Source: an uncultured virus (IMG/VR IMGVR_UViG_3300044655_001510) (lineage: Duplodnaviria; Heunggongvirae; Uroviricota; Caudoviricetes). Taken from it: 64,000 nt of DNA. Position 1 is the first letter of the stretch, and the number at the start of each line of letters is the position of its first letter. Under the pieces are notes generated by a model. That model saw nothing but the letters and a program-made list of their open reading frames with translations. It was not told the DNA's origin and searched no databases. Below are positions 14,396 to 64,000 of this stretch, piece after piece. The position numbers were made by a program, and so were the translations under genes. Where the stretch lies: IMG/VR virus record IMGVR_UViG_3300044655_001510; one strand, 5' to 3'.

Positions 14396-14716
14396 TCAAG
14401 AGATTATTCTACATGGTTTTGTTAATCTGCGATATTCCTTGCCCTCTGTGCTGTAGATAATACCCCGATCACAGTGAACCCACGCGGTATCTTGTTGATC
14501 TTCATTTTCGGTTGAAGTCCAACAGAAATGTACAGGTAACGCGATATCAAACTCACGAACACCAGCATACTCAGAACTGGCAGTCCATTCAGCAAATTCT
14601 TCGAATGTAGGTAAACGCCAGCCAGTCATACCATCTACATTCAAGGCAAAGCAATAGACCTTGGCATCCCACCAATTTAAGTATATACAATATTCTTCAG
14701 GGGCGAATTCAATCAT
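14396..14716 (-). CDS. Minimal DUF1566/Lcl-C-like (CLec) domain protein
   Basis: EFAP..AKVYCFALNVDGMTGWRLPT..WTS..PCR. Confidence 0.8.
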   Translation of the reverse strand: MIEFAPEEYCIYLNWWDAKVYCFALNVDGMTGWRLPTFEEFAEWTASSEYAGVREFDIALPVHFCWTSTENEDQQDTAWVHCDRGIIYSTEGKEYRRLTKPCRIIS

Positions 14717-14723
14717 GGGTTGT

Positions 14724-14751
14724 ATTATAACTAAAAGATCAGGGATGTCAA
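14724..14751 (-). promoter_or_regulatory. Sigma70-type promoter with CTAAAAGAT motif in spacer
   Basis: TTGACA-16-TATAAT; ATG only 7 nt after the -10 box (leaderless). Confidence 0.7.
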
Positions 14752-14835
14752 TATATTATTTTTGTGGAATTGGTGAGATGCGAGCACCGCTAGGCTCGAG
14801 CCATAAATACACCATACCAATATGAGAGTAACTAA

Positions 14836-15426
14836 ATGAGAATATCCGAGTTTGTAACAGAAAATACAGTTGAATTATCAAAAGAGCCAGGAACCATGAG
14901 TTTGTGGCATGGTGGAAACTTAACCAGCGACTTAGTCTTAATTCCACAAAAGACTGGTAGATTTGAATACGGTGCTGGTTTATACGCAACTACGCATTAC
15001 GATACTGCCAGAAAATACAGTAAAGGTTCACGTAAACTATATAAGATTACGTTAAGACAAGGCACAGATGCAAATAAATCATATGTTGAACTGGATAAGG
15101 CACTTGGGTTTGTTAACCAATTTGTAACTAAAGCAAAGCGTAAAGAAATTATGCAACAGCTTGAGAAGTACAATAAAAATAACATGATACCAGCGTATGT
15201 ATTCAACAACGTCATCTTAAACGAAAAAGCAATTAAGGCAACCGATACAGTTAATTTAAGTCGGTTCTTTGTTGATAACGGTATCGATTATCTACTCGTA
15301 CCAAATGCATTCGGATGGGGTGAAATGATGGTAGTTATTTTCAACTTACAGAAAATCTCAGACGTGCAACAGATCAAACCAACCGATACGATTGTTGACT
15401 ACGATTTACCAGTAAACTTTAATTAA
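14836..15426 (+). CDS. Putative ADP-ribosyltransferase-fold internal head protein
   Basis: MRISEFVTE N-terminus; LWHGG..GAGLYAT..ARKY motifs; TAAATA upstream. Confidence 0.55.
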   Translation: MRISEFVTENTVELSKEPGTMSLWHGGNLTSDLVLIPQKTGRFEYGAGLYATTHYDTARKYSKGSRKLYKITLRQGTDANKSYVELDKALGFVNQFVTKAKRKEIMQQLEKYNKNNMIPAYVFNNVILNEKAIKATDTVNLSRFFVDNGIDYLLVPNAFGWGEMMVVIFNLQKISDVQQIKPTDTIVDYDLPVNFN

Positions 15427-15455
15427 AAAAGGCACCCGTATCGGTGCCTTATCTT

Positions 15456-15638
15456 TTAGATTACCGAAGCGTAACGAAAAACTTCTTTAGCAGAAAGGTA
15501 TTTACCTTGCAATGGGTCGTAGTAAACAACCTTATCTTGTTTATCTCTGAATGGTCCTTCCATTCCGGTTACAGAACCATATCCATCAATTAGCGATGAT
15601 TTCTTAACATCACGATGTTTAGTATAATGTACGGTCAT
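15456..15638 (-). CDS. Hypothetical phage protein
   Basis: GMEGPF..YYDP..GKYL motif. Confidence 0.6.
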   Translation of the reverse strand: MTVHYTKHRDVKKSSLIDGYGSVTGMEGPFRDKQDKVVYYDPLQGKYLSAKEVFRYASVI

Positions 15639-16420
15639 AAGTCAAAATACCTCATTTGAAAATTACGGTGACTTGGTTCGTGAGGATACCCACGAGGGTT
15701 TGTAATAACGTGGCAGTCACCATGGACCACGTCTAATCCAGAATGCATATGTCCATAAATGAAATAATCAATCCCTTCCATGTATTCGGTCAAATCCGAC
15801 GAGAACAATCCGTTCATGTGGTATTGGTCTTTGTATATTGGATTGATAGTCGCATGTGAAGGTGAATGATGACTCACAACAACTGTCCGGTTCTTAGTAG
15901 TATTTAAGAACTTGTCCAATCCAATCAAGTATTGTTTGTGTAGTTTTAATGCAGTGCTAGGTAAGAACTTACCAGTGCCTTCTTTTATAACACGGAAGTC
16001 CATTAAAGTCTTTGGTGCTAGTAACATGGTTTGTGGATCTTCTCGATTGAAGTCAGTCCAGCACGTACCACCATAAAAATCAATACCTTCTAAGGTAATC
16101 GATTCACAATCTAAAACATGGATATTGGTATACTCAGCCAATGCGCGTTTTAAGTTACCAATACAATTATATTGGGATCCATACAATGAATGATTCCCAG
16201 CAATATAAATGACATGCTTGTACTTAAACGAAATAATCTCGAAAAAGTCAACAAAATCAGTACTAGTAGGATCTGGGTGATTCTGTTGGAATATTAGACT
16301 CGCAGTAGGAACAATATCACCAGCTAATACTAAAATGCTATTTGGAATCGGATGTATAATCCCGTAATCCAATTGGCGATGTTCTAAATGTAAATCTGAT
16401 GCGTAGTATATTCTAGTCAT
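15635..16420 (-). CDS. Calcineurin-like metallophosphoesterase
   Basis: SDLHLE, LAGDI, AGNH, HHSP, GHMH, NPRGY. Confidence 0.9.
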   Translation of the reverse strand: MTRIYYASDLHLEHRQLDYGIIHPIPNSILVLAGDIVPTASLIFQQNHPDPTSTDFVDFFEIISFKYKHVIYIAGNHSLYGSQYNCIGNLKRALAEYTNIHVLDCESITLEGIDFYGGTCWTDFNREDPQTMLLAPKTLMDFRVIKEGTGKFLPSTALKLHKQYLIGLDKFLNTTKNRTVVVSHHSPSHATINPIYKDQYHMNGLFSSDLTEYMEGIDYFIYGHMHSGLDVVHGDCHVITNPRGYPHEPSHRNFQMRYFDL

Positions 16421-16617
16421 TTTCGTACAAAGTAAGCAATTATGTGTGTGAATACAATAATAGATAATAGGTAACCAAACTCATACCAGTGTTTGGTAGG
16501 AATGTTGTAGTGCTGGATTTGATCAATAACCGTGGTTAACATCCATGCTAAACCGTAAGTGAGTGCGACGTAAATTAAGAATTTCATACCGGTATTTAGG
16601 TGGCACTCGCGATTGAT

Positions 16618-16833
16618 TCAACCATCTTTTAGATCTCGCACTGGGACTACTGGCCACATTCTACCACAATTATTTGCCGGGTCGCCTTGATACCAGCATG
16701 CACCAACTGATTCCTGATTAGCGTAGTATTCCGCTTGTGTTGGTAACCGCCAACCATCACCTAAACAAAAACAATACAAAACTGCCTCGTCATAACTTAT
16801 GCCAAATTCTGATGCTTTTCCGATTTCAATCAT
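16618..16833 (-). CDS. Minimal DUF1566/Lcl-C-like domain protein (array 1)
   Basis: MIEIG..YCFCLGDGWRLPT..PVRDLK. Confidence 0.85.
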   Translation of the reverse strand: MIEIGKASEFGISYDEAVLYCFCLGDGWRLPTQAEYYANQESVGACWYQGDPANNCGRMWPVVPVRDLKDG

Positions 16834-17062
16834 CTTTTAGATCTCGTACTGGGATTACTCGATATTTTTTAGTCTCACTGTCATCACGGACTTCACCATA
16901 CCAATATTTCCACGTATTCGTGTAACCAACGATAATGCGTATTTCGTCATACGTCGGTAATCTCCAACCAACATCACCTTCAATATTAAGTGAGAAACAA
17001 TAGAAGATTGCTTCCGCCCACGTCAACTCTGCTTCGTATTCTTTTGGTGCTAGTTCAATCAT
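16826..17062 (-). CDS. Minimal DUF1566/Lcl-C-like domain protein (array 1)
   Basis: Family motifs; 8-nt ATGATTGA overlap. Confidence 0.85.
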   Translation of the reverse strand: MIELAPKEYEAELTWAEAIFYCFSLNIEGDVGWRLPTYDEIRIIVGYTNTWKYWYGEVRDDSETKKYRVIPVRDLKDD

Positions 17063-17288
17063 CTTTTAGATCTCGTACTGGGATAATAGTTCCAAGATTA
17101 GTTAATCGATCACTTCGTTCACCTGGACCGTCAGCATACCAACCGTATATGTTTCTGTTATTGAAAAATTCTTTTTGCGTTGGTAATCTCCAACCAACCT
17201 TACCATCTATATTCAAAGAAAAACAATATAACTTGGCATCCGTATACGTTAATTTTTTGTGATATTCAACAGGTGCTACTTCAATCAT
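17055..17288 (-). CDS. Minimal DUF1566/Lcl-C-like domain protein (array 1)
   Basis: Family motifs; 8-nt overlap. Confidence 0.85.
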   Translation of the reverse strand: MIEVAPVEYHKKLTYTDAKLYCFSLNIDGKVGWRLPTQKEFFNNRNIYGWYADGPGERSDRLTNLGTIIPVRDLKDD

Positions 17289-17532
17289 CTGTTAGATCTC
17301 GTACTGGGATTAACCAATATTTAATTTTATGTGAAATGTTATCAACCGTGTCATTAGAATTCCACATCCCACGAATGCCATGAACTCTTACAACTCGAGT
17401 TTCTTCTAGGGTTGGAATTCGCCAATCCCGTTTACCATCAATGTCCAATAACATAAGATAAAGTCGAAGATTAGTCACCTCGGTTTCTATCCAGTACTCT
17501 TCAGGTGCTACTTCGAGTCTTGGTTCAATCAT
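17281..17532 (-). CDS. Minimal DUF1566/Lcl-C-like domain protein (array 1)
   Basis: Family motifs; 8-nt overlap. Confidence 0.85.
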   Translation of the reverse strand: MIEPRLEVAPEEYWIETEVTNLRLYLMLLDIDGKRDWRIPTLEETRVVRVHGIRGMWNSNDTVDNISHKIKYWLIPVRDLTDD

Positions 17533-17734
17533 CTTTTAGATCTCGTACTGGAGTTACATGCAACGTATGATGATGCATACTAGCACGTTCGTCATAGCAC
17601 CAGTCTGCATACATGGTATGCGTATGGTACTCGTTGATCGATGGTAATCTCCAGCCATCACCTAGACAAAAACAGTAGAATACTGCATCCTCATATGTCA
17701 TCTCACATTCTGATCTTTTACCTATTTCAATCAT
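17525..17734 (-). CDS. Minimal DUF1566/Lcl-C-like domain protein (array 1)
   Basis: Family motifs; 8-nt overlap. Confidence 0.85.
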   Translation of the reverse strand: MIEIGKRSECEMTYEDAVFYCFCLGDGWRLPSINEYHTHTMYADWCYDERASMHHHTLHVTPVRDLKDD

Positions 17735-17939
17735 CTTTTAGATCTCGTACTGGAGTTACCGGCCAAAGACTAACTCCATGACGCAGAAAGTCGTCTTTTA
17801 ACCAACCAATGTGTCCTGGTATGTAACGCGCGGATTCCCCTTCAGTTGGTAATCTCCAGTCATCACCTAGACAAAAACAGTAAAATACGGCATCGGCGTA
17901 GGTCATTCTTGAATTTGTAGTTTCACCTATCTCAATCAT
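17727..17939 (-). CDS. Minimal DUF1566/Lcl-C-like domain protein (array 1)
   Basis: Family motifs; 8-nt overlap. Confidence 0.85.
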   Translation of the reverse strand: MIEIGETTNSRMTYADAVFYCFCLGDDWRLPTEGESARYIPGHIGWLKDDFLRHGVSLWPVTPVRDLKDD

Positions 17940-18193
17940 CTTTTAGATCTCGTACTGGAATAATAACAAGTTCAGGTTCTCCCTGATCCTCAATATAACA
18001 AAGTTCATCTGAAAACCAATAATTACCCATCCAATGGTTTGGGTCACTTGCATCATACACGTAATAAATCCATTCGTCGCTGGTAGGCAATCTCCAACCA
18101 ATCTTATCATCAATCTTCAAAACAAACAAGTACAAATCGATATTGTGGATGGTCGATTTTTTTCCAATACTCTTCCGGTGCTATCTCAATCAT
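17932..18193 (-). pseudogene. Minimal DUF1566-like gene frameshifted at an A7 run
   Basis: MIEIAPEEYW start at 18193 is 1 nt out of frame with LYLFV..WRLPT..PVRDLKDD; A6 restores the frame. Confidence 0.7.
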
Positions 18194-18458
18194 CTTTTAT
18201 ATCTCGTACTGGGATTAACAAAAACTTGGATCCAACTCGAGTATACCATTCTTCATCCAACGAATCTGCGGTAGTCCAAGGTTCTCGACTGTGAGATATA
18301 TCATTTGTGGGAGGGATTTCATTAATCCAAACATGCAGATCATAATCACTTGGTAATCTCCAATCCTGTTTGCCATCAATCGTCAAAACAAACAAATACA
18401 GCTTGATTTCTTGCCACGTACATTCAACCCAGTATTCTTCAGGTGCTATCTCAATCAT
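18186..18458 (-). CDS. Minimal DUF1566/Lcl-C-like domain protein (array 1)
   Basis: Family motifs; near-duplicate of the next gene. Confidence 0.85.
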   Translation of the reverse strand: MIEIAPEEYWVECTWQEIKLYLFVLTIDGKQDWRLPSDYDLHVWINEIPPTNDISHSREPWTTADSLDEEWYTRVGSKFLLIPVRDIKDD

Positions 18459-18708
18459 CTTTTATATCTCGTACTGGGATTAACAAAAACTTGGATCCAA
18501 CTCGAGTATACCATTCTTCATCCAAAGTATCCGTAATTGTCCATCGTTCAGCCTTGATATTCGGTATGCTAACAAACCAATCCTCTTGTTCCTCTTCGGT
18601 TGGTAATCTCCAATCCTGCTTACCATCAATAGTCAATACAAACAAATACAGCTTGATTTCTTGAAACGTACATTCAATCCAGTATTCTTCAGGTGCTAGT
18701 TCAATCAT
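18451..18708 (-). CDS. Minimal DUF1566/Lcl-C-like domain protein (array 1)
   Basis: Family motifs. Confidence 0.85.
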   Translation of the reverse strand: MIELAPEEYWIECTFQEIKLYLFVLTIDGKQDWRLPTEEEQEDWFVSIPNIKAERWTITDTLDEEWYTRVGSKFLLIPVRDIKDD

Positions 18709-18919
18709 CTTTTAAATCTCGTACTGGCATGACTCTATAAACATCAGAACGATTCCGCCATGGATCATCTTGATACCAACCCAGTAAATTGTGGTTTTCG
18801 AATTCGTCAGCTGTTGACAATCTCCATCCATCACCTAAACAAAAGCAATACATAACCGCCTCGTCATAGGTCATTTTGAATGTTGATCGTTCACCGATTT
18901 CAATTTTTGGTTTAATCAT
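18701..18919 (-). CDS. Minimal DUF1566/Lcl-C-like domain protein (array 1)
   Basis: Family motifs. Confidence 0.85.
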   Translation of the reverse strand: MIKPKIEIGERSTFKMTYDEAVMYCFCLGDGWRLSTADEFENHNLLGWYQDDPWRNRSDVYRVMPVRDLKDD

Positions 18920-19127
18920 ATTTTAAGTCTCGTACTGGGATTACATGCCAACATAGATTACGGTTAGTTTGGTCATTAAAGTTCCAAACAAAGTCTACAT
19001 TGCCGTCGAATTCTTCAATGGTTGGTAATCTCCAGCCAATCTTACCATTAACGTTTAATGAAAAACAATACATAACCGCCTCGTCGTATGTCATTCTTGC
19101 ATCTGTTGTTTCACCTATCTCAATCAT
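18912..19127 (-). CDS. Minimal DUF1566/Lcl-C-like domain protein (array 1)
   Basis: Family motifs. Confidence 0.85.
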   Translation of the reverse strand: MIEIGETTDARMTYDEAVMYCFSLNVNGKIGWRLPTIEEFDGNVDFVWNFNDQTNRNLCWHVIPVRDLKYD

Positions 19128-19434
19128 CTTTTAGATCTCGTACTGGTCTAACTAAGTTATCGTCATAACCCTTATTCTCAGGCGATGACTTGTAATCCAT
19201 ACCTTGTCGATTAAAATCTACATCAATAGCATACCCAATGTCACCTTCTTCACATGACCAGTAATACCATCTAGCAAAATCGCATCCGGGCATAGCCCAG
19301 ATACTATTCAACTCCTTAACAGTTGGCAACCTCCAACCAGTTTTACCATCTATGTTGAGAGCAAAACAATACAAACGGGCATCATCCCAGCTTGATCGTA
19401 TTTCATACTCTTTTGGTGCTATCTCAATGTTCAT
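19120..19434 (-). CDS. DUF1566/Lcl-C-like domain protein (array 1)
   Basis: SWDDARLYCFALNIDGKTGWRLPTVKEL..YYWS..VRPVR. Confidence 0.85.
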   Translation of the reverse strand: MNIEIAPKEYEIRSSWDDARLYCFALNIDGKTGWRLPTVKELNSIWAMPGCDFARWYYWSCEEGDIGYAIDVDFNRQGMDYKSSPENKGYDDNLVRPVRDLKDD

Positions 19435-19703
19435 GGTTTGTCTCTCACTGGAATTAACTTGTAGTTTGAAAATCCATGTTTAGTATGTTCGTTAAAATAT
19501 AGAACAGCTTCACTGTACCAAACAAGTTCACCGGATTGCCAACATATGCCTTTTAATTGGGTGAGTTCATAGTTAGTGGGCACCCGCCAGTCTGTTTTAC
19601 CATCAATATTCAACGAGAACAGGTAAAGACGGATTTCCTCATGCGACATACAATTCCAGTATTTTTCTGGTGCGAGTTCAAATTTTATGTCTAGTCTTGC
19701 CAT
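19431..19703 (-). CDS. Minimal DUF1566/Lcl-C-like domain protein (array 1)
   Basis: Start MARLDIKFELAP coupled by TAATG. Confidence 0.8.
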   Translation of the reverse strand: MARLDIKFELAPEKYWNCMSHEEIRLYLFSLNIDGKTDWRVPTNYELTQLKGICWQSGELVWYSEAVLYFNEHTKHGFSNYKLIPVRDKP

Positions 19704-19975
19704 TATAAGTCTCTTACTGGTATGGTTATAAACAGCGGATCTTTCCACTCATTTAATTTGTCTGGTGTAACGCAATCTAAGTCTTCCAGCAGCCAGTAAT
19801 CAGAAAAGAATTGCTTGTATTCTGATGTAAAGTCGTATATCTCGTGAAGCCATTCATCTCTCGTGGGAAATCTCCAGCCTGCCTTGTTATCGATTAACAG
19901 TGAAAACAAATATAACCTAGCATCATTAAATTCGAGTTTTTTCCAGTATTCTTCAGGTGCTATTTCAATTGCCAT
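19703..19975 (-). CDS. Minimal DUF1566/Lcl-C-like domain protein (first of array 1)
   Basis: Start MAIEIAPEEYW after AGGA RBS and sigma70 promoter. Confidence 0.85.
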   Translation of the reverse strand: MAIEIAPEEYWKKLEFNDARLYLFSLLIDNKAGWRFPTRDEWLHEIYDFTSEYKQFFSDYWLLEDLDCVTPDKLNEWKDPLFITIPVRDL

Positions 19976-20003: not shown

Positions 20004-20032
20004 ATTGTACTTAGAGATTGGTTGGATGTCAA
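20004..20032 (-). promoter_or_regulatory. Sigma70-type promoter driving array 1
   Basis: TTGACA-17-TACAAT. Confidence 0.75.
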
Positions 20033-20304: not shown

Positions 20305-21495
20305 ATGACAGTATTTAGCCCAGAAAAAACACAAGAGTTTATCACGTTAGCAACTGAAAAACATGGTAATAAGTATACCTATGAAAAAGTTCAAGTTAGA
20401 GACGGGACGGGTTATAAAAAAGATAAACTGACAATCTATTGTCTGAAGCATGGTTATTTCGATCAATCATGGAATTCGCATCTTTCATCTAGTGGATGTA
20501 TTAAATGTGCACACGATAGGGTAAATGAAGCAAACACCAAAACACAGGAACAAGTTATTGCGGAATTCCAAGAAGTTCATGGGACCCGTTACAAATATCA
20601 TTTAGTGGACTATAAAAAAGGACATATACCAGTATTGATTGAATGTACAAAGCACGGTGTGTTTTCTCAAACACCATCAAATCACCTGCAAGGTGGATGT
20701 GAAACATGTTCATATGAGTTGAGATCAGAGAATCTTCGACAGGATAGAGACAGTTTAATTGCTGATTTTAATCGAATCCATAACTCGGTATATGATTATT
20801 CACTAATGGAAGATTACAAAAATGGAAATGATAAAATAACAGTCATATGTAAAAAGCATGAACCATTTAAGATTTCAATTTTAAAACATAAGGCGGGTCA
20901 GGGATGTAAAGAATGCGGGAAATTGGCAGCAGCTGATATTCGTAGATTAGACCAGAGTGTTATGTTGGAAAGATATAGAGAAGCACACGGCGATCGTTAT
21001 GGATACGACTATTTTGAGTATAAAACAGCACATACTAAGATAAAGGTAGAGTGTTTTGATCATGGTATATTTGAAATTACGGCGAGAGATCATGTTAAAA
21101 GTGGCTGTCCAAAATGTAGATTAGCTGAACAATCATCACATATTTCACATAGATGGTTGGATAGTTTGGGAATACCATTAGAAAAAGAATATAGATTCCC
21201 GCAATATAAAGGTAGACCAGTGGATGGATTTCACGTCGAATCTAACACAATCTATCAATTTCATGGTGATTATTTTCATGGAAATCCAGTAGTATATGAT
21301 GCTAACGAATATAATGCATTGGTGAAAAAGACGTTTGGTGCGATATATGAAAATAGTTGCCGCGTTGATCAAGATTTTAGAGATCTTGGTTGTAATTTAG
21401 TTATTATGTGGGAGCATGATTGGAAAATTCATGAACGAGAACAACGTGAATTACGAAAACAGCAAGTATTGGAAGAACGGAAAAATAAGCAGTAG
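20305..21495 (+). CDS. Homing-endonuclease-like protein: four Zn-binding (DUF723-like) repeats plus C-terminal Vsr/PD-(D/E)xK-type nuclease
   Basis: Repeats C.KHG.F..H..GC..C; C-terminal VDG..YQFHGDYFHG..MWEHDW. Confidence 0.8.
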   Translation: MTVFSPEKTQEFITLATEKHGNKYTYEKVQVRDGTGYKKDKLTIYCLKHGYFDQSWNSHLSSSGCIKCAHDRVNEANTKTQEQVIAEFQEVHGTRYKYHLVDYKKGHIPVLIECTKHGVFSQTPSNHLQGGCETCSYELRSENLRQDRDSLIADFNRIHNSVYDYSLMEDYKNGNDKITVICKKHEPFKISILKHKAGQGCKECGKLAAADIRRLDQSVMLERYREAHGDRYGYDYFEYKTAHTKIKVECFDHGIFEITARDHVKSGCPKCRLAEQSSHISHRWLDSLGIPLEKEYRFPQYKGRPVDGFHVESNTIYQFHGDYFHGNPVVYDANEYNALVKKTFGAIYENSCRVDQDFRDLGCNLVIMWEHDWKIHEREQRELRKQQVLEERKNKQ

Positions 21496-21531: not shown

Positions 21532-22125
21532 TTAAATAGATTTCAATTGTCGTTTAGTTACAATCTCATCGGCTAGCCCGTATGCAATTGCTTCTTCGGC
21601 TGAAAGGAAGAAATCACGTGACATATCGTGTTCTAGTTTTTCGAAAGTTTGCCCAGTGTTTTTGACATATATATTTGTTAGTAATGTATTCAATCTCAAC
21701 GTCTCAGCCATTGCAATTTTCATATCAACCGCAGTTCCTTGGTTTCCACTTGACACGCAGTGTAATAAATGTCTAGCATTTGGTAGCATAAAACGCTTAC
21801 CTTTAGTTGCTGAACTAGCTATGATAGATCCCATCGATGCTGATTGGCCCATTGTGTAACTAAAAATATCGTTAGAAATCATGGACATACAATCTACGAT
21901 CGCAAGACCACTTAACACGGATCCTCCGGGGCTATTGATATACATGTGAATGTCTTTTGTTGGATCTTGTGCTTCAAGAAATAACAATTGCGCTGTTACA
22001 GAAGCAGCCATTTGATCGTTGATATCGGTCGAAATCACAATTATGCGATCTCTGAGTAATTGTGAAAAAATATCAAAAACTCTTTCACTGTTGCTCGTTT
22101 TCTCTACTACCATTGGTACCATCAT
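21532..22125 (-). CDS. clpP: ATP-dependent Clp protease proteolytic subunit
   Basis: DIFSQLLRDRII, YINSPGG, SASMG (Ser), H, RDFFLSAEEAIAYGLAD. Confidence 0.95.
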   Translation of the reverse strand: MMVPMVVEKTSNSERVFDIFSQLLRDRIIVISTDINDQMAASVTAQLLFLEAQDPTKDIHMYINSPGGSVLSGLAIVDCMSMISNDIFSYTMGQSASMGSIIASSATKGKRFMLPNARHLLHCVSSGNQGTAVDMKIAMAETLRLNTLLTNIYVKNTGQTFEKLEHDMSRDFFLSAEEAIAYGLADEIVTKRQLKSI

Positions 22126-22331: not shown

Positions 22332-22607
22332 CTATTCTAAATCACGAACAGGGTGCACACCTAATTGATAATCATTCACACCGAACCTAGTACTGAATGG
22401 TGACAAATACTTGATGTGGTTGTTGGCGGTAACTTCAGACGACCAGTAATTTCCGGGTTCGATCAATCCTCGACCTAGCATCACATGTAGTTCAGCGATC
22501 GTAGGTAATCTCCAACCGGTCTTACCCCCAATATTAAGAGCAAAACAGAACAATCGGGCTTCGTCCCAAGTTGCCTTAATCCAAACTGGTGCTATTTCGA
22601 ATTTCAT
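22332..22607 (-). CDS. DUF1566/Lcl-C-like domain protein
   Basis: Family motifs, NYWSS. Confidence 0.85.
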   Translation of the reverse strand: MKFEIAPVWIKATWDEARLFCFALNIGGKTGWRLPTIAELHVMLGRGLIEPGNYWSSEVTANNHIKYLSPFSTRFGVNDYQLGVHPVRDLE

Positions 22608-22948
22608 GATAAATCCCTTACTGCTCTGACTGTGAATCGATTGAACTTCGGGTGTTGTCCTGACAATTGATTCATGAAATTAAATCCAAACGCAGTGACT
22701 GTGGAATCCCATGTAGTGGCAGTAGATGACCAATAGTATAGATAGTCAAAATCATTGGCAGTAGATGACCAATAGTGTAGATATTCAAAATCATACTCAT
22801 TGGGAGCGTCGTAAATATTCTGTAATTCAAAAATTGACGGTAATCTCCAACCCGTTTTACCATCGATATTAAGAGAGAAACAGAACAATCGTGCATCATC
22901 CCAGTTGGCTTGGATCTCAGTTGATTTAGGTGCTATTTCGAATTTCAT
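22604..22948 (-). CDS. DUF1566/Lcl-C-like domain protein with internal 13-aa duplication
   Basis: APKSTE..WRLPS..(YWSSTA)x2..VRAVR. Confidence 0.85.
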   Translation of the reverse strand: MKFEIAPKSTEIQANWDDARLFCFSLNIDGKTGWRLPSIFELQNIYDAPNEYDFEYLHYWSSTANDFDYLYYWSSTATTWDSTVTAFGFNFMNQLSGQHPKFNRFTVRAVRDLS

Positions 22949-22978: not shown

Positions 22979-23006
22979 AGTATAAACGGATTTTCTGAAA
23001 TGTCAA
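22979..23006 (-). promoter_or_regulatory. Sigma70-type promoter
   Basis: TTGACA-16-TATACT upstream of 22948. Confidence 0.7.
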
Positions 23007-23862: not shown

Positions 23863-23992
23863 TGGGTAACTCCTTTGGCGTATTGGTATATTTAGTGGTT
23901 GGTATTGTAGTTTTGTTTGGTCGGGTTGTCAAGTGGTTATTGTTGTGGATTTTGTTTGGTAGCGAGCACCGCTAGGTGCGAGCCATATAACA

Positions 23993-24018
23993 GAAAACCC
24001 ACTTTAGGGTGGGTTTTC
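23993..24018. terminator. Hairpin downstream of the VR-like gene (terminator and/or DGR-type target hairpin)
   Basis: GAAAACCCAC-6nt-GTGGGTTTTC, 22 nt after stop at 24041. Confidence 0.6.
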
Positions 24019-24040
24019 AATATTACGTTACAAAAAAAGC

Positions 24041-24581
24041 CTAAATGGTTGATCGCCGGGTGGCTCTAACGACGCGGTAGATGTCGTTCTTCTTGATGTT
24101 GCTCTGGTTGCCATTGCTTAAATTCTGCATCCAGACGTCAACGTCATTGTACTCAGTAGAGGACAAGTAGTAGTTACCAACACCAGTACCGAACGCATTA
24201 GCGGTGGCGAATGGAGTTGCTGATTTATTTGAATACATGGTAAGTAATTCGTTTTTAGCTGGTAGGTACCAGGTACTATAACCACCGGTGGTTAATGATT
24301 TTGCGTAATAAGCCGCTGGGTGCGCGGCAGAACCAAAACTATGTAGGGTTGTGGTATTATCTACGCCATTGGTGGTACTGGTGGTGCTACGAACTGTTCC
24401 ATAACTACCCCATGTTTTTCCTACTTCAGTCGATTTAGGTGCTACGTATAAATTAAAGTTTCCACTGGCACCGAGGCAATAACCTTTTGTGGAAGAACCA
24501 GAACCAATTGGTACATTAGGCCAAGCAGGACCCCCCCCCCGATACCTGGGTTCGTCTATGAAATTTTTGTAAACTACTCAT
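24041..24581 (-). pseudogene. Full-length DUF1566/CLec DGR-target-like protein interrupted by G10 tract (possibly phase variable)
   Basis: ATG at 24581 with AGGAG RBS; G10 (24531-24540) gives a stop after 21 aa; G9 gives a 179-aa ORF ..VAPKSTE..AKSLTTGGYSTWYLPAKNEL..YYLSSTEY..VRATRR. Confidence 0.8.
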
Positions 24582-24735
24582 TTTACTTCTCCTTTTATAA
24601 TATATACTTGTATTTACCGAGTTTTTGACAATCCACTATCAATATAACTGTAAAATATGAGCATCCAGCATACACTTAAGCTCGTCACTTCGTTCCTCGC
24701 AACAACTCAATATATAATAAGGAGTAAACTAACGG

Positions 24736-24763
24736 TTGACATTCTGATTTTATACAGTATACT
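24736..24763 (+). promoter_or_regulatory. Sigma70-type promoter
   Basis: TTGACA-16-TATACT upstream of 24794. Confidence 0.7.
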
Positions 24764-24793: not shown

Positions 24794-25084
24794 ATGAACA
24801 TTGAAATAGCACCAACGGTGATAACAGCTAACTGGGACGATGCCAGGTTGTATTGTTTTTCTCTTAATGTTGATGGTAAAACTGGATGGAGATTACCAAC
24901 CAGATTGGAATTACTCGAAATATATCAGTCTGGTAGATATGTACGATTAAATTTTTGGTGTTGGTCTGCTACTGAGTACAATGATGTTGGAGCTTGGGTT
25001 AAACTATTTGGAAATGGTAGAGACGATGTCCGTCTTAAAGAGACCAGCCACGGTCTAGTTATGGCTGTGAGGGATTTGGTATGA
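24794..25084 (+). CDS. DUF1566/Lcl-C-like domain protein
   Basis: Family motifs, CWSATEYN. Confidence 0.85.
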   Translation: MNIEIAPTVITANWDDARLYCFSLNVDGKTGWRLPTRLELLEIYQSGRYVRLNFWCWSATEYNDVGAWVKLFGNGRDDVRLKETSHGLVMAVRDLV

Positions 25085-31197: not shown

Positions 31198-31204
31198 CGG
31201 CAAA

Positions 31205-53465: not shown

Positions 53466-53798
53466 ATGAACATAGAACTTGCACCTTTAGAATACATCAA
53501 AGCACTCACGTGGGATGAAGCCCGTTTGTATTGTTTTTCGTTGAACATCGATGGGAAGGTTGGTTGGAGATTACCAACTATGCGAGAATTGCATTGGCTT
53601 GGGTCAAGAGGGTTAATCACTTCGGAACATACCCAAACAATGAATTATCGGAAGTATCCTAGATACTGGTCCAGCGAGGAGCATTCTGATTACTCAGGAT
53701 GTGCGTGGCTTGCGATGCCACTTCTGGTTGATATGCATACAACTTGGGATGACAAATACGTGAATACTACCCTAGTTAGACCAGTGCGAGATTGCTAA
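53466..53798 (+). CDS. DUF1566/Lcl-C-like domain protein
   Basis: Start MNIELAP; RYWSSEE..AW..VRPVR. Confidence 0.85.
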   Translation: MNIELAPLEYIKALTWDEARLYCFSLNIDGKVGWRLPTMRELHWLGSRGLITSEHTQTMNYRKYPRYWSSEEHSDYSGCAWLAMPLLVDMHTTWDDKYVNTTLVRPVRDC

Positions 53799-56381: not shown

Positions 56382-56624
56382 ATGATAGAAGTATCGCCAA
56401 TAGAATTACGCCCAACCCATAATATATCACGATCCGATGCAGAATTGCATCTATTAAAATTAGATATTGGATGGCGACTGCCGACTAGAAGTGAACTTAA
56501 CAACATCATGGCTGTTATCCACGGTGAATCGCCAACCATAATGCATGCCTGGGTTGCTGAAGACTCGATTCATAGTGTTGGGTTATGCCCACTTGTACCA
56601 GTGAGAGATATTGACGATGATTGA
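56382..56624 (+). CDS. Minimal DUF1566-like protein (array 2)
   Basis: GWRLPT..PVRDIDD. Confidence 0.8.
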   Translation: MIEVSPIELRPTHNISRSDAELHLLKLDIGWRLPTRSELNNIMAVIHGESPTIMHAWVAEDSIHSVGLCPLVPVRDIDDD

Positions 56625-56820
56625 GATTGGGAAGTACTATAACAAACGAATCACGTATGACGAGGCAATCTTATATTGTTTTTGCTTGGGTGATGGTTGG
56701 AGATTGCCATCTGAAGCCGAATACATTGAGTATGAATTGCAAGGTTCTTGGTATGTTGATAGAATCTCACAAGTTAGTACGTTTTTTGTTAGACCAGTGC
56801 GAGATATAAAAGATGATTAA
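56617..56820 (+). CDS. Minimal DUF1566-like protein (array 2)
   Basis: 8-nt overlap; family motifs. Confidence 0.85.
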   Translation: MIEIGKYYNKRITYDEAILYCFCLGDGWRLPSEAEYIEYELQGSWYVDRISQVSTFFVRPVRDIKDD

Positions 56821-57034
56821 ACTGCAAATGGGTAAACCAACCATGTCGAGAATCACATACGAGAATGCACAGTTCTACATATTCTGCCTAGGTGATGGCT
56901 GGAGAATGCCAACTCTGAATGAGTGCATAATATATCAAATGTACGGTGATTGGTGGTATACTGAACGACGTTGTTACAGTGTAGATGATGTATACCTTTT
57001 ACAACCTGTTCGCGAGGTACCTGAAGATGATTGA
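56813..57034 (+). CDS. Minimal DUF1566-like protein (array 2)
   Basis: 8-nt overlap; family motifs. Confidence 0.85.
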   Translation: MIKLQMGKPTMSRITYENAQFYIFCLGDGWRMPTLNECIIYQMYGDWWYTERRCYSVDDVYLLQPVREVPEDD

Positions 57035-57287
57035 AATAGCCACTGAGGATCTTGTAGCAATGCTTACCTTCGACGAAGTAAAACTGTATTTGTTTTCTTT
57101 AGGTGATGGATGGCGATTGCCAGCAATCACTGAGGTAGTTCTATGCCGACAAAAACATCCCATTCTTGGACTAGCCGGAACGCTGTGGAGTGATGTTTGG
57201 TTTAATTTTATTCAAGCACAAACCCATCCAGGTAGAGGTAGATCCTCACACTTATTAATCCCAGTACGAGATCTAAAAGATGATTGA
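57027..57287 (+). CDS. Minimal DUF1566-like protein (array 2)
   Basis: 8-nt overlap; family motifs. Confidence 0.85.
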   Translation: MIEIATEDLVAMLTFDEVKLYLFSLGDGWRLPAITEVVLCRQKHPILGLAGTLWSDVWFNFIQAQTHPGRGRSSHLLIPVRDLKDD

Positions 57288-57495
57288 AATAGCACCAATG
57301 GACCGTGAGATCCTCCTAAATTACGAGGAAGCAATGATATATTGCTTTTCGTTAAACATCGATGGTAAAATAGGTTGGCGATTACCAACCAAAGATGAAT
57401 GGTACGATAACGATCAATTAATGGGTTGTTGGTATATTGGTAGACCCAGTAAAGGTAAATGGTTGCTTGCACCAGTACGAAGCATTGACAATTAA
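57280..57495 (+). CDS. Minimal DUF1566-like protein (array 2)
   Basis: 8-nt overlap; family motifs. Confidence 0.85.
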   Translation: MIEIAPMDREILLNYEEAMIYCFSLNIDGKIGWRLPTKDEWYDNDQLMGCWYIGRPSKGKWLLAPVRSIDN

Positions 57496-57915: not shown

Positions 57916-58149
57916 ATGATAATTGAAGAATTTGGGATTGAACTAGCACCACTGTCAGAATCCGCGATGTCATATACCGAAGCAAAAATGTATTGCTTCA
58001 CATTAACGTATGATGATAAGATCGGTTGGAGATTACCAAGCTACGATGAATGGGAAATCATTCCACATATCGTCGGATGGCACGAAAACAAGTTGGCAAG
58101 CGATAGTACTTTTCCACGACGAGTTATGCCAGTGAGAGATTTGAGATGA
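57916..58149 (+). CDS. Minimal DUF1566-like protein
   Basis: Family motifs. Confidence 0.85.
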   Translation: MIIEEFGIELAPLSESAMSYTEAKMYCFTLTYDDKIGWRLPSYDEWEIIPHIVGWHENKLASDSTFPRRVMPVRDLR

Positions 58150-58229
58150 TTGAAATAGGTGAACGAACAAAATTCGAAATGACGCATGATAATAACAACT
58201 TCTTAACAAACAACATAATGGAGTTACGC

Positions 58230-58421
58230 ATGATTGAACAATTTTCACATATAGGTACCGACCATATTTGCAATGTTTGTTCTTGCGAATTTTCGGATGA
58301 CGAAGGCGGAATTCAAGGATACTTTGGAATACTTCCAGTTGCATTTTGTCCAACCTGTTACAGTAGTATGTACGATATGGTTCAGCAAGACATGGAATAC
58401 ATGGACGACCTCGACGAATAG
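58230..58421 (+). CDS. Small Zn-finger-like phage protein
   Basis: CNVC..GGIQGYFGILPVAFCPTC; GGAG RBS; preceded in frame by a truncated family N-terminus from 58146. Confidence 0.7.
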   Translation: MIEQFSHIGTDHICNVCSCEFSDDEGGIQGYFGILPVAFCPTCYSSMYDMVQQDMEYMDDLDE

Positions 58422-58788: not shown

Positions 58789-58794
58789 TAAACC

Positions 58795-58990
58795 CATTCA
58801 CAACAGGTATACAAGTCAACTACCCGACGACTAAAGATCGTCGGGCTTGCTTACTCCCATGACTAACTACTGGTGATTTAGTAGATCTCTCGATTTTAGA
58901 AGTCATTTTCAGTAAAGCCTCTGGGATTACTCCCACATCGCCTGTTGCGTGCGATGATAATTTGGTTCCATAATTGAGTCTTTGCCCTTC
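58795..58990 (-). ncRNA. Predicted TnpB omega/reRNA scaffold plus flank-derived guide
   Basis: By analogy with TnpB systems: overlaps the tnpB 3' end, ends at GTTGAC (58815), guide from flank TTGTATACCTGTTGTGAATG; 5' boundary uncertain. Confidence 0.5.
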
Positions 58991-60237
58991 ATGGAGAATA
59001 TTTGTGGCAGCATTCAAGTCTCTGTCATGGACTTCGCCACAAGAAGGGCATTCCCATTCACGAGTTGCTAAATCCAATGATTCGAGTTTATGGCCACAGC
59101 AAGAACAGGTCTTGCTACTTGGATAAAACCTGCCTACTTGTTGAACAAGAACGCCAGCCCATTCCGCTTTATATTTGATCATTTCTGAAAGAGTAGACCA
59201 AGCGATTTCGTGGATTGCTCTGCTGAGTTTCCGGTTCTTAAGTAAATTACTGACTGCCAAATCTTCTAAATAAATCACGTCATTGGTAGCCACTAGGTAT
59301 TTACTAAGGATATGATAATACTCATTTCGCTGTCGCGTAATCTTGGAATACAAACGAGCCACCTGAATCCGTAGTTTCTCGTGGTTTTTGCTGCCTTTGG
59401 TAGTTCTTGCAAACTGCTTTTGTTTGCGTTTCAATAGCTGCTTGGTTTTCGCATGGTATAGCAACGCATCTGGTTTTAAAAATCGAAGACCACTTGAAGT
59501 AATCATCAAATCTTTAATACCTAAATCAAAACCGACTTCTCGATTTTTGTAATCTTGGGTGGGTACATCTGTTTCTATTAGCACAGATGCATAATACCGA
59601 TCATCTGGATTTTTAGGAACGGTTATTGATTTAACAACTGCACCTTCAGGGATTGGTCTATGGATAACTGCTTTTACTTCTTTTAATTTTGGAAGTTTAA
59701 TGGCATTATCTAGTACTTTGGTTCCTCGACCAGGGGTTCGATATGACTGACGTCCATGTTTTGATTTGAACCTTGGCTCTTCTACTCGTTTACCTTTTCT
59801 GTTTCCAGCACGGGATTTGAACATGTTATCATATGCAGCTGCGAGGTCAGCTGATGCGCCTTGTAAGGCATTCATGTCTACTTCGCAAAGGAATTCCAGT
59901 TCTTTCTTTAACGGGGTAATGAGTTTATTGACCGCGAATCCATTCAGGTGTGGTTCACCTGCCAAATATCTTCGTTCATTTTCTGCTTTAAATCGGTTAT
60001 AGATCAGTCTCTTGCAACCAAATGTCTTCCCAATCAGAATTTGTTGCTCTGATGTCGGGTATATACGATATTTGATTGCAATTAATCTTTTCATGTCTGT
60101 ATTTAGCATTTGACAAAGAACGACTTATGGATTAACGTATGGTTTTATTACTTGATGGGGAATTAAACATGAATAGCGAATTACCACACGCATTCCTCCC
60201 GGCGACTAAAGATCACCGGGTTTCCTGCGCGAATCAG
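58815..60237 (-). mobile_element. Non-autonomous IS200/IS605-family (IS1341-like) element
   Basis: Subterminal hairpins CCCGACGA-CTAAAG-ATCGTCGGG (right end, ...GGGTAGTTGAC) and CCCGGCGA-CTAAAG-ATCACCGGG (left end); tnpB only, no tnpA; adjacent TTCAT as probable TAM. Confidence 0.8.
58820..60094 (-). CDS. tnpB: RNA-guided endonuclease TnpB
   Basis: KYRIYPT HTH, GFDLG (RuvC-I), LEDL (II), CSCC/CPSC Zn ribbon, DRDLNAA (III). Confidence 0.95.
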   Translation of the reverse strand: MKRLIAIKYRIYPTSEQQILIGKTFGCKRLIYNRFKAENERRYLAGEPHLNGFAVNKLITPLKKELEFLCEVDMNALQGASADLAAAYDNMFKSRAGNRKGKRVEEPRFKSKHGRQSYRTPGRGTKVLDNAIKLPKLKEVKAVIHRPIPEGAVVKSITVPKNPDDRYYASVLIETDVPTQDYKNREVGFDLGIKDLMITSSGLRFLKPDALLYHAKTKQLLKRKQKQFARTTKGSKNHEKLRIQVARLYSKITRQRNEYYHILSKYLVATNDVIYLEDLAVSNLLKNRKLSRAIHEIAWSTLSEMIKYKAEWAGVLVQQVGRFYPSSKTCSCCGHKLESLDLATREWECPSCGEVHDRDLNAATNILHEGQRLNYGTKLSSHATGDVGVIPEALLKMTSKIERSTKSPVVSHGSKQARRSLVVG

Positions 60238-62203: not shown

Positions 62204-62446
62204 ATGACTATCGAAATAGCACCCATCGAATACCATGACGCAATGACATGGAATCAAGCTAAACTCTATTTGTTTGCATTGAACATAGATGGTAAGATTG
62301 GTTGGAGACTACCAACAAGAAAAGAGTTTAGCGTGGATATGCATGGCCTGTATTTATGTTGGGTACAAGAAGATCAATCATCATTGATGGATTCAGAACT
62401 AGATACATTACAATACATATGTTATCCAGTCCGAGATGTCAAATAG
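62204..62446 (+). CDS. Minimal DUF1566-like protein
   Basis: Family motifs. Confidence 0.85.
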   Translation: MTIEIAPIEYHDAMTWNQAKLYLFALNIDGKIGWRLPTRKEFSVDMHGLYLCWVQEDQSSLMDSELDTLQYICYPVRDVK

Positions 62447-62521
62447 TTCCCTGTCGAGAATATGAGTTTGCTATTCACGGAAAATACCAAATAAATACAC
62501 AAAATTAAGAGGATTACCAAA

Positions 62522-63241
62522 ATGCGCATCTGTGAACTAATTACAGAATCAAAACAACGCCTAGACCCAAGTTGTTGGAAGGGCAAACACAAAGAAGGTA
62601 CCAAGATGAAAGGTGGTATCCGAGTCAATAACTGTGTACCAAACGAAAACTTCAATGCAGTATATGATGACGAAGCTGGGATGGCTCACAGCAATCTTCA
62701 TACGCTTCGAAGAGCAGTCGATGGGCTACTCGATACAATCGACGATCATGAAAACTTACCAGAATGGGCTCAAGAGAAAATCGCAAAAGCAGAAAGCATG
62801 CTGGTTTCTGTTTGGGATTACCTACAAAGCCAAGAGGATCAAGGAGTCAACCCAACAGTTGACGAGATGTTCGACATGATAGAAGATATGGTAGAAAGTT
62901 TAGCCATCAAACATAACATTGATAGCGATCTTATATGGGAAGACTTTGAATCAGTCAGTGATCGTGAACTCTTTGAAACAGCCGCGTGGCAACGCAAAGA
63001 AGGCAAGAACAAGAAAGGTGGTTTGAACAAGAAAGGTGTAGCAAGTTACCGCAGAGAACATCCCGGTAGCAAACTTCAAACTGCAGTTACTACCAAACCA
63101 AGTAAACTCAAACCAGGTAGCAAAGCAGCCAAAAGACGTAAAAGTTTTTGTGCTCGAATGAGTGGTATGAAAGGACCAATGAAAGACGACAACGGCAAGC
63201 CAACCAGAAAAGCACTGGCACTGAGAAAGTGGAACTGCTAA
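62522..63241 (+). CDS. Putative internal head/late protein of T4-like phages (MRICELITE)
   Basis: CWKG..GTK..NNCV and KGGLN.KG..KRRKSFCARM..W.C modules. Confidence 0.75.
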   Translation: MRICELITESKQRLDPSCWKGKHKEGTKMKGGIRVNNCVPNENFNAVYDDEAGMAHSNLHTLRRAVDGLLDTIDDHENLPEWAQEKIAKAESMLVSVWDYLQSQEDQGVNPTVDEMFDMIEDMVESLAIKHNIDSDLIWEDFESVSDRELFETAAWQRKEGKNKKGGLNKKGVASYRREHPGSKLQTAVTTKPSKLKPGSKAAKRRKSFCARMSGMKGPMKDDNGKPTRKALALRKWNC

Positions 63242-63246
63242 TCAAC

Positions 63247-63272
63247 AAGGGTATCTAAGTATACCCTTTTTT
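63247..63272 (+). terminator. Intrinsic terminator
   Basis: AAGGGTAT..ATACCCTTTTTT. Confidence 0.7.
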
Positions 63273-63337
63273 GTTATTGACATAATTGATTGTTTCGGTA
63301 TAATACACGGTAACTCAATTATCTTTTAGAGAATCGC

Positions 63338-63571
63338 ATGGCCATCGAAATAGCACCAGAAGAATATCACAAAGAAGAAATAACCTACTCGGAAGCATTG
63401 GTCTATTGCTTCTCCCTTGATATCGATGGTAAGATAGGATGGCGATTACCGACAGATCAAGAATACGTCTTTGAACTACCAGACCGGTACAATGTACTTT
63501 TTCAAAATTGCAATTACTTTGATCATAATACAGCAACCTGCATACCAGTACGAGATGTAAAAGATGATTGA
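63338..63571 (+). CDS. Minimal DUF1566-like protein (array 3)
   Basis: Family motifs; promoter TTGACA-16-TATAAT at 63277-63304. Confidence 0.85.
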   Translation: MAIEIAPEEYHKEEITYSEALVYCFSLDIDGKIGWRLPTDQEYVFELPDRYNVLFQNCNYFDHNTATCIPVRDVKDD

Positions 63572-63869
63572 AATAGCACCTAAAGAAACTGTAGCAAAAC
63601 TTACGTGGGAAGATGCCAGACTCTACTGCTTCGCACTCAATGCAAACAACAAAACTGGATGGCGTTTACCTACCCTCGAAGAACTCTATTACGTCAGAGA
63701 AAACTTAGATTATAAATTCGGTCATGATTACTACTGGTCGTCTGAGTCTACAGCAGATAGAGCTAATTGCGTTTTCATGGGAGGCTACAAGTATCCTAGT
63801 AAGGATTGTACAAGAAACTCACCAACCACTTTTACTTTCTACGTAAGAGCAGTCAGAGATATAACATGA
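63564..63869 (+). CDS. DUF1566-like protein (array 3)
   Basis: YYWSSE..YVRAVR. Confidence 0.85.
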   Translation: MIEIAPKETVAKLTWEDARLYCFALNANNKTGWRLPTLEELYYVRENLDYKFGHDYYWSSESTADRANCVFMGGYKYPSKDCTRNSPTTFTFYVRAVRDIT

Positions 63870-64000
63870 ACATCGAAATTGCACCAAAAGAAACTGAGGT
63901 CATAGCCAATTGGGAAGATGCCAAACTCTACTGCTTCGCACTTAATACAAATAACAAAACTGGTTGGCGTTTACCCACTAAAGAAGAACTTAATGAGATC
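63866..64000 (+). CDS. DUF1566-like protein (array 3, partial)
   Basis: MNIEIAPKETEVIANWEDAKLYCFALNTNNKTGWRLPTKEELNEI. Confidence 0.85.
   Translation, partial: MNIEIAPKETEVIANWEDAKLYCFALNTNNKTGWRLPTKEELNEI

Follow-up and report, generated by a model that had tools for sequence, protein, structure and literature searches.

A family of small paralogous genes

The sequence analyzed here (the window) is a stretch of 64,000 nucleotides from an uncultured member of the Caudoviricetes (IMG/VR record IMGVR_UViG_3300044655_001510), whose segment from 14396 to 64000 carries a large family of short genes with a conserved head, a variable tail and a terminal PVRD motif. A first-pass annotation had counted about 40 such paralogs and proposed that they represent a candidate new phage diversification system. 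A regular-expression pass followed by a search with a hidden Markov model (HMM) built from the window's own copies identified 38 paralogous open reading frames (ORFs) with E-values of 4e-18 to 4e-33, with the next-best ORFs at 5e-3 and 0.76. The gap to the ORF at 0.76 places the family far above chance, and the weak match at 5e-3 is a divergent DUF1566 ORF at 24044-24577 (-), so that the original count now reads 38 members plus one distant relative. Together, the family genes fill 10,074 nt, or 20% of the segment.

The proposed arrangement in arrays, pairs and singletons was borne out. Fourteen units lie contiguously at 16618-19975 (-), five at 56382-57495 (+) and three at 24794-25631 (+), and a further triplet at 63338-64000 (+) has its last unit cut by the window end. 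Pairs are found at 22332-22948 (-), 27769-28370 (+) and 51699-52228 (+), and singletons start at 14396, 30391, 45562, 53466, 57916 and 62204. The proteins measure 67-114 aa, apart from one form of 176 aa, and 36 of the 38 frames are open, the exceptions being one frameshifted unit and the unit truncated by the window end.

An alignment of the window members yields the consensus MxIEIAPxEYxxxxTxxEAxLYCFSLNIDGKxGWRLPTxxE...W...VxPVRDL, in agreement with the motif first noticed, with L26, W34, R35 and R98 invariant. The members come in two flavors: a longer one of ~95-114 aa that resembles canonical DUF1566 proteins, and a mini form of 67-90 aa, in which the NIDGK loop is missing along with most of the loop region and the C-terminus usually reads PVRDLKDD. 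Across 6216 pairs of 112 members from the window and its nearest relative, the contig G001, pairwise identity averages 0.51 in the head and 0.24 in the tail, whose length ranges from ~20 to ~60 residues. The claim that the intervening segment differs in every copy needs one qualification: W58 is almost invariant, and the longer subfamily shares WYWSSTE-type positions.

Neighboring units are tightly joined. Mini arrays have almost the same junction DNA (CCAGTACGAGATCTAAAAGATGATTGA) throughout, with the stop codon overlapping the next start by 8 nt, while the longer forms use a 4-nt ATGA stop/start overlap. Decayed relics of the junction (GATAATTGA) mark array ends. Codons for PVRD vary less than those for WRLPT, an equally conserved motif, which suggests a constraint on the DNA or RNA itself, imposed by translational coupling or by recombination.

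Individual members and their counterparts in the nearest relative

G001 is an IMG/VR contig of 327,256 bp with an estimated completeness of 92%. Its region at ~111-184 kb is syntenic with the entire window in reverse orientation, mostly at 85-95% nucleotide identity. Its major capsid protein is of the T4 type (Gp23 family, E 3e-96), and the window likewise comes from a T4-like jumbo phage. The family comprises 83 ORFs in G001, distributed over several regions and making up ~7% of its 327 kb.

The main array is read on the minus strand and begins with two members of 90 aa each (19703-19975 and 19431-19703), followed by a 104-aa member with a 97% G001 ortholog (19120-19434), a 71-aa member (18912-19127), a 72-aa mini member whose best G001 match reaches 60% (18701-18919), an 85-aa member with a 94% ortholog (18451-18708) and a 90-aa member (18186-18458). 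The next unit (17932-18193) is frameshifted by an extra A in a run near 18163 (A7, compared with A6 in G001) and is either the pseudogene it had been taken for or the product of a homopolymer read error. It is followed by mini members of 70 aa (17727-17939, 99% ortholog) and 69 aa (17525-17734, no ortholog, best G001 match 51-55%), by members of 83 aa (17281-17532), 77 aa (17055-17288, 97% ortholog) and 78 aa (16826-17062) and, in last position, by a 71-aa mini member (16618-16833). Also on the minus strand are the 106-aa singleton at 14396-14716 (HMM E 7e-27, 90% ortholog), whose C-terminus deviates from the family pattern (KPCRIIS), and the pair formed by a 114-aa member without G001 ortholog (22604-22948, best 53%) and a 91-aa member (22332-22607).

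All remaining members lie on the plus strand. The first triplet consists of a 96-aa member whose positional counterpart in G001 is just 56% identical (24794-25084), a 105-aa member with a 99% ortholog (25081-25398) and an 82-aa member that terminates in the relic junction (25383-25631). The pair behind it combines a 97-aa member without syntenic ortholog (27769-28062) with a 103-aa member that was chosen for modeling (28059-28370). Singletons of 78 aa (30391-30627) and 97 aa (45562-45855) and a pair of 95 and 81 aa (51699-51986 and 51983-52228) precede the 176-aa form (52621-53151, HMM E 5e-21), correctly recognized as a fusion at first inspection, in which the family domain carries a ~60-aa N-terminal extension; its G001 counterpart is 67% identical, and it gave no Pfam match. 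A 110-aa singleton (53466-53798) is followed by the five-unit array, with members of 80 aa (56382-56624), 67 aa (the shortest of all; 56617-56820, 99% ortholog), 73 aa (a mini form; 56813-57034), 86 aa (57027-57287, no ortholog, best 43-45%) and 71 aa (57280-57495). The 77-aa member at 57916-58149 adjoins a stub that had likewise been noted before (58146-58421), in which 15 family-head codons are joined to a zinc-ribbon-like CxxC..CxxC gene, whereas the equivalent site of G001 carries three additional units. The series ends with members of 80 aa (62204-62446), 77 aa (63338-63571) and 101 aa (63564-63869) and the truncated unit (63866-64000, HMM E 4e-23).

The members adopt a C-type-lectin-like fold

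The assignment to the CLec/DUF1566 fold made at first sight is supported by both profile searches and models. Pfam family PF07603 (Lcl_C, formerly DUF1566) has a gathering cut-off of 34.9 bits, which was exceeded by six of ten members tested, all of them longer forms (35.7-51.9 bits): the proteins encoded at 22604 (51.9), 28059 (49.3), 24794 (42.1), 53466 (41.4), 19120 (40.6) and 63564 (35.7). The singleton at 14396 scores 33.9 bits. At E <= 0.01, Lcl_C is found in 20 of 36 members. Mini members of 67-80 aa remain below the Pfam threshold, with 15.5 to 30.3 bits (the latter for the 78-aa protein at 16826) or no match, and are tied to the family through the window HMM, the shared head and the fold.

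AlphaFold2, run with alignments of metagenomic homologs, returned models with a pLDDT of 88.6 and a pTM of 0.81 for the 103-aa member (28059-28370) and of 93.1 and 0.80 for the 71-aa member (16618-16833). In a Foldseek search, the top PDB match of the 103-aa model was the C-terminal domain of Legionella Lcl (8q4e_A, E 4.7e-6, TM 0.77), followed by the C-terminal domain of Bdellovibrio Bd2740 and then by many C-type-lectin-like domains (CTLDs). The 71-aa model had no Foldseek match at E < 1e-3. When it was compared with VIA-align, however, all recognizable rows among the 50 listed were C-type-lectin-like or Link-type domains, including poxvirus A35, TvpA, invasin, Lcl and Mtd, with 61-69 of its 71 residues aligned; the best Z of 7.3 is middling in absolute terms, but the match list is uniform. 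Both members are thus confidently predicted to fold as CTLDs, in which an N-terminal strand and helix 1 are followed by the GWRLPT strand, the beginning of helix 2 and the final VxPVRD strand; to this core, each member adds its private loop segment.

Classical C-type lectins bind sugar and calcium through an EPN or QPD motif together with WND. This combination was found in none of the 38 window members and in none of 82 members from G001. The proteins begin directly at the domain and lack both collagen-like stalk repeats and a hydrophobic leader.

Distribution of the family

The window had no nucleotide match in a collection of GenBank phages, and a tblastn search of the same collection with the 103-aa member gave no match at E <= 1e-3; the matches of its DNA ligase in the collection are at most 33% identical. 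In metagenomic protein searches, the long form had 355 relatives and the mini form 54; their sources include two further large contigs, of 271,688 and 256,506 bp. When a mini-form profile was compared with proteins clustered at 50% identity, 886 clusters matched at E <= 1e-3, of which 104 reached E <= 1e-10, and 78 of the best 150 were no longer than 120 aa. PF07603 is listed for 11 of 11 longer relatives in a precomputed Pfam column, with PF26707 in addition in one of them; a rescan of five longer relatives showed two domain stretches in three and one in two. An Atlas look-up returned only viral clusters bearing PF07603, which we treat as leads rather than evidence.

Other viral contigs also hold arrays. 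A 306-kb contig (L006) contains ten domain copies, several of them fused, and its in-frame fusions of two or three copies at 8654-9601 (316 aa), 13614-14306 (231 aa) and 15527-16393 (289 aa) indicate that the units serve both as separate genes and as chained domains. Representative bacterial genomes yielded seven distant, partial relatives with 35-46% identity. At these loci, the window HMM found no domain in four cases, a domain at the end of a 204-299-aa ORF in two, and one in a 93-aa ORF at a contig end in the seventh.

Each copy is conserved while the repertoire turns over

Among the orthologous pairs formed by the window and G001 and pre-filtered to at least 80% identity (23 of 37), the pooled ratio of nonsynonymous to synonymous substitution rates (dN/dS) was 0.20 for the scaffold and 0.20 for the variable segment, with dS values of 0.18 and 0.16. 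Each copy, including its private segment, is under purifying selection. The initial proposal of a genomically encoded library is therefore upheld in that the members are real single-domain genes. Since tails are conserved between orthologs, each member keeps a fixed private loop, and variability exists between paralogs rather than within a lineage; for this reason, the label "antibody-like" that had been attached to the family is an overstatement. The best paralog of a member within the window has a median identity of 0.46 (maximum 0.71), compared with 0.89 for the best copy in G001. The paralogs are old.

At the level of whole units, the repertoire is less constant. For the 37 whole members, the G001 match is at least 85% identical in 20 cases, 60-85% in 11 and below 60% in six. 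A comparison of copy number and order, as had been suggested, shows 14 units in the main array of the window and 17 in that of G001; about ten are common to both in the same order, and each array has private units. Several units bear marks of rearrangement. The 71-aa member at 18912-19127 is 86% identical to a G001 unit in the tail but 54% in the head, indicative of a head swap. The units at 18186-18458 and 18451-18708 are recent duplicates with flanks that are 93-100% identical, and yet an internal block of ~88 nt, including a 15-nt indel, is almost unrelated; neither the window nor G001 contains a donor of this block. Finally, a chimeric metagenomic protein (P0165) combines the head of the unit at 17727-17939 (97%) with the tail of the adjacent unit at 17525-17734 (97%), as would be expected from unequal crossover within the conserved YCFCLGDGWRLP stretch. 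Whole units, which share conserved junction DNA, are thus gained, lost, duplicated and recombined in the repertoire. This picture, to which the stub also belongs, confirms the turnover by duplication and recombination envisaged at the outset and adds deletion to it.

The divergent DUF1566 ORF at 24044-24577 (Pfam Lcl_C E 3.9e-10) is carried by an insertion of ~740 bp (23943-24679) that is absent from G001. No start codon is available in the frame of the domain. Translation from an ATG at 24580, which has a good ribosome-binding site, would pass through a G10 tract (24531-24540) that leaves it out of frame with the domain, and the loss of a single G would bring the two frames together. The tract could reflect phase variation or a homopolymer assembly error.

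No diversity-generating retroelement is involved

In the available excerpts of the phage literature, DUF1566 appears mainly as a target of diversity-generating retroelements (DGRs), which rewrite a variable repeat (VR) from a template repeat (TR) by means of a reverse transcriptase. No RVT_1 match was present among the 56 window ORFs of at least 100 aa, and the same search found no reverse transcriptase in G001, which covers an estimated 92% of its genome, or in the 306-kb contig. As a positive control, the identical search detected the reverse transcriptase (E 5e-18) in the record of a distant viral contig, L017, where the stretch 10206-12387 holds a gene ending in DUF1566, followed by an RT-15 RNA (RF03018, 143.5 bits) and the reverse transcriptase gene. 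This layout is that of a canonical DGR. The window also lacks a TR/VR pair, as all of its 12 direct-repeat families of at least 60 nt correspond to conserved heads and junctions or to other genes. Nor is there an adenine bias, with A involved in 69 of 132 differences in the variable segment (52%) compared with 142 of 214 in the scaffold (66%). No DGR takes part in the variation of the family, and together with the equal dN/dS values of its two regions, these results speak against the active diversification system that had been proposed.

In a tail-fiber-type protein encoded at 5859-6932 (-), collagen repeats follow an Mtd_N domain, which corresponds to the N-terminus of the tropism determinant of Bordetella phage.

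Cellular location and expression signals

Within the first 30 residues, the longest hydrophobic run is at most six in all 38 members, which accordingly have no leader. Their median isoelectric point is 4.7, and their cysteine count varies from 0 to 5. Leaderless and acidic, they fit the profile of cytoplasmic proteins.

Sites matching the sigma-70 consensus at 11 or more of 12 positions occur 23 times in the window, compared with 3.2 +/- 1.7 times in simulations. All of them have a perfect TTGACA box, and most are located 8-42 nt upstream of an ATG. Eight of the 23 precede family genes or arrays, six of them within 8-34 nt. Perfect 12/12 sites are found at 14724-14751 (-), 8 nt before the start at 14716, at 45526-45553 (+), 9 nt before 45562 (with a second site at 45395-45423), and at 63277-63304 (+), 34 nt before 63338. 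Sites with 11/12 matches lie at 20004-20032 (-), 29 nt before the start of the 14-unit array, at 22979-23006 (-), 31 nt before 22948, and at 24736-24763 (+), 31 nt before 24794. In G001, sigma-70 sites are rare in the capsid-gene block at 0-60 kb and common in the regions occupied by the family (rho 0.36, p 0.04).

The T4 late promoter TATAAATA does not occur in the window and was therefore unusable as a late signal, so that a weaker motif was derived instead. In those blocks of G001 that are structural and poor in promoters, gene upstream regions are enriched in the 8-mer GCTAAATA (7-mer CTAAATA; 17/117 versus 4/147), which also precedes both tail-fiber operons of the window, at 8195 and 56086 (-). 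Before family genes, it was found in 0/3 cases in the window and 0/17 in G001. This candidate motif may be the phage's version of the T4 late promoter.

Genomic neighborhood and host

A TnpB/IS605 OrfB-type gene with a Cas12f1-like TNB domain is located at 58820-60109 (-), and because its 80%-identical copy in G001 lies ~57 kb away from the syntenic place, the element has moved. Two large paralogous genes of the homing-endonuclease type (phrog_655) with common internal repeats are found at 43886-45295 (-) and 50060-51526 (-), and a further HNH-type gene (20305-21495), encoded on the strand opposite to that of the main array, is located upstream of it. Host-like or conflict-type genes also occur among the arrays (21532-22125, 30643-32142, 34952-35410, 39175-43806 and 48798-49553); the set comprises ClpP (48% identical to the syntenic G001 gene), an AlgH-like protein, a class-3 lipase, the HAD domain of RNA-repair proteins, a MoxR-type AAA protein with a VWA/DUF2201 metallopeptidase and a caspase-family peptidase C14.

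No tRNA was found in the window, and G001 gave no Sigma70_r2 match. An ORF-poor repeat of ~1.3 kb (11585-12867) contains a Polynucleobacter-1 RNA at 12344-12494 (-) (RF01718, 66.6 bits), with two near-consensus sigma-70 promoters upstream of it (12843 and 12759). Four copies of this RNA occur in G001, none farther than ~2 kb from a family array, and the single copy in contig L008 follows a family pair at a distance of 1.5 kb. According to the available part of its description, the motif is known from Burkholderiales and from freshwater and estuary samples (PMC2864571), which hints at a host among freshwater Burkholderiales.

Discussion

Our results are most readily understood if the phage maintains, in its germline, a library of small CTLD proteins that act as cytoplasmic binders of fixed individual specificity, with unit-level recombination causing turnover at the margins of the library, although we give this reading only about an even chance of being correct. 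In this scheme, host RNA polymerase would transcribe the arrays from their consensus sigma-70 promoters as polycistronic messages, and the stop/start overlaps of 8 or 4 nt would ensure translational coupling. By analogy with the promoter classes of T4, the proteins are probably made early in infection. The products would act as small protein binders in the host cytoplasm, with one target each, and the targets would most plausibly be strain-variable host proteins, such as those involved in defence or other targets of takeover, or proteins of competing phages. Variation of the targets between strains would explain why many specificities are conserved while the edges of the repertoire turn over. 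Host defence or takeover proteins are plausible candidate targets.

Several observations weigh against this reading. The nearest structural relatives (Lcl, Bd2740, Mtd and TvpA) are extracellular adhesin tips and, as the first-pass annotation had rightly pointed out, the domain is normally part of a larger protein, in other phages mostly the end of large fiber-like proteins. The filter at 80% identity excluded the fastest-changing positional pairs from the dN/dS analysis, and diverged positional pairs change in both head and tail, with indels in the variable part. Moreover, the family's dN/dS is twice that of its surroundings (0.10 in 35 neighboring genes), and the presence of a frameshifted unit and a stub implies that single copies are dispensable. 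As for expression, the early timing that the sigma-70 sites suggest rests on likeness to T4, the enrichment of the late motif is weak, and a sigma-70 promoter at 33749 heads an operon that includes a PAAR protein, a structural type.

A more far-reaching version of the library, which we regard as doubtful, would make recombination itself the source of diversity. Here, the head and the stop/start junction would serve as homology handles, such that loop cassettes are swapped, duplicated or deleted, independently of a DGR, among the >80 paralogs and between co-infecting relatives, with different members neutralizing different host defence proteins. If correct, this would be the first germline "binder library" in a bacteriophage, following a logic like that of the multigene families of large eukaryotic viruses.

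It is also conceivable, albeit unlikely, that the proteins act early and inside the cell but share one housekeeping or takeover task, such as chaperoning, the regulation of a single host complex or superinfection exclusion, with the copies providing dosage or subfunctionalization. The evidence on location and promoters suits this proposal equally well, and the high conservation of 20 of the 37 members between the two phages indicates a mostly stable repertoire rather than an arms race. However, tails that are on average 24% identical and differ threefold in length are a poor fit with a single ligand, and units have been gained and lost between phages that are ~90% identical.

Quite unlikely, in our judgment, though the main alternative to an intracellular function, is a role as detachable or secreted adhesin modules, in which lectin-like tips would dock onto collagen-like fibers or the capsid, or be freed at lysis, and thereby widen host or surface recognition. 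T-even phages have separately encoded tip adhesins (gp38), the closest solved relatives of the family are adhesin or fiber tips, and its matches in BFVD include a 594-aa peptidase-S74 protein, a 1034-aa collagen-repeat protein and a 1417-aa tail fiber; collagen-repeat fibers with an Mtd_N domain are encoded in the window itself. Against such a role, the members have neither an anchoring or stalk domain nor a signal peptide, their longer relatives are just tandem fusions of the same domain, and the arrays lie behind sigma-70-type promoters instead of the candidate late motif. In addition, the calcium and sugar motifs are missing, and the proteins are acidic, whereas the accessible text on Lcl describes a basic face that binds glycosaminoglycans (GAGs) (PMC11162425).

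Neutrally evolving selfish or decaying repeats spread by unequal crossing-over, a scenario that would account for the conserved junction DNA, the gain and loss of units, the frameshift and the stub, are very improbable and contradicted by the dN/dS of 0.20 in both regions, the 36 open frames, two confidently predicted folds and hundreds of metagenomic homologs. That the tails are written by a DGR, as in other DUF1566 proteins, can hardly be correct even though the domain class is, in the excerpts at hand, a known DGR target and one is paired with a reverse transcriptase in L017, because no reverse transcriptase was detected in the window, the part of the genome covered by G001 or the 306-kb contig, a TR/VR pair and adenine bias are lacking, the direct repeats fall on heads rather than tails, and the tails differ by indels between paralogs but are conserved between orthologs.

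Returning to the library of fixed binders, its members, if they do bind host proteins, would constitute a ready catalog of small, well-folding inhibitors and a clue to the systems that a jumbo phage must disarm. The devotion of ~7% of a 327-kb genome to one tiny fold shows a CLec scaffold, known to tolerate hypermutation by DGRs, diversified by gene multiplication. The forms of 67-71 aa are among the smallest CTLDs and thus possible minimal scaffolds for protein engineering.

Comparison with known systems

Lineage-specific multigene families of viruses and the use of CLec domains as variable binders are both known, but their combination appears to be undescribed in print: the expansion is not mentioned in titles and abstracts of the DUF1566, PF07603, jumbo-phage and Lcl literature, supplementary files lying outside this search, and the available portion of a survey of 224 jumbo phages reports no CLec (FGS) domain (PMC7824862). 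The same source, as far as it is accessible, treats the expansion of a zinc ribbon to ~35 copies in Bacillus phage G as unprecedented (Iyer et al., 2021; PMC7824862). As in the present case, one small domain has been expanded in a jumbo phage, but the fold is different, and G001 has 83 copies.

The C-terminal domain of Lcl from Legionella pneumophila (PF07603; PDB 8q4e) belongs to the same sequence family as the longer members and is the best structural match of the 103-aa model. An intradomain salt bridge described in the available text of the structure paper (PMC11162425) appears to match the conserved R and E of the family's GWRLPTxxE motif, a correspondence that we infer. In that text, DUF1566 is considered a possible carbohydrate-recognition or trimerization module, and Lcl is a secreted trimer with a collagen-like stalk and a basic GAG-binding surface (PMC11162425), whereas the family members are standalone, leaderless and acidic proteins of 67-114 aa, whose mini forms, unlike Lcl, lack most of the loop region. 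With VIA-align, the 71-aa model aligned best with the C-terminal domain of Bd2740 from Bdellovibrio bacteriovorus (PDB 8oks; Z 7.3, rmsd 1.9, 67 residues). This is the end domain of a far longer protein (aligned residues 532-627), while the family genes are free-standing and small.

The fold matches also include CTLD proteins of fowlpox virus, canarypox virus and ranid herpesvirus 3, with several from the same virus in some cases (four from ranid herpesvirus 3), at a sequence identity of just 8-13%. The mini form, moreover, has one of its best matches in the compact poxvirus A33/A35 domain. These animal-virus CTLDs are membrane-bound or secreted proteins of eukaryotic viruses, with a handful per genome. 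A parallel in terms of logic is provided by Mtd from a Bordetella phage (PDB 1yu0) and TvpA from Treponema (PDB 2y3c), which have the same fold as the 71-aa model (Z 4.7 and 6.6, respectively) and likewise combine a constant scaffold with a variable binding segment. In these systems, however, a single gene is rewritten by a reverse transcriptase, whereas the family described here consists of many fixed genes, in which diversity is stored rather than generated.

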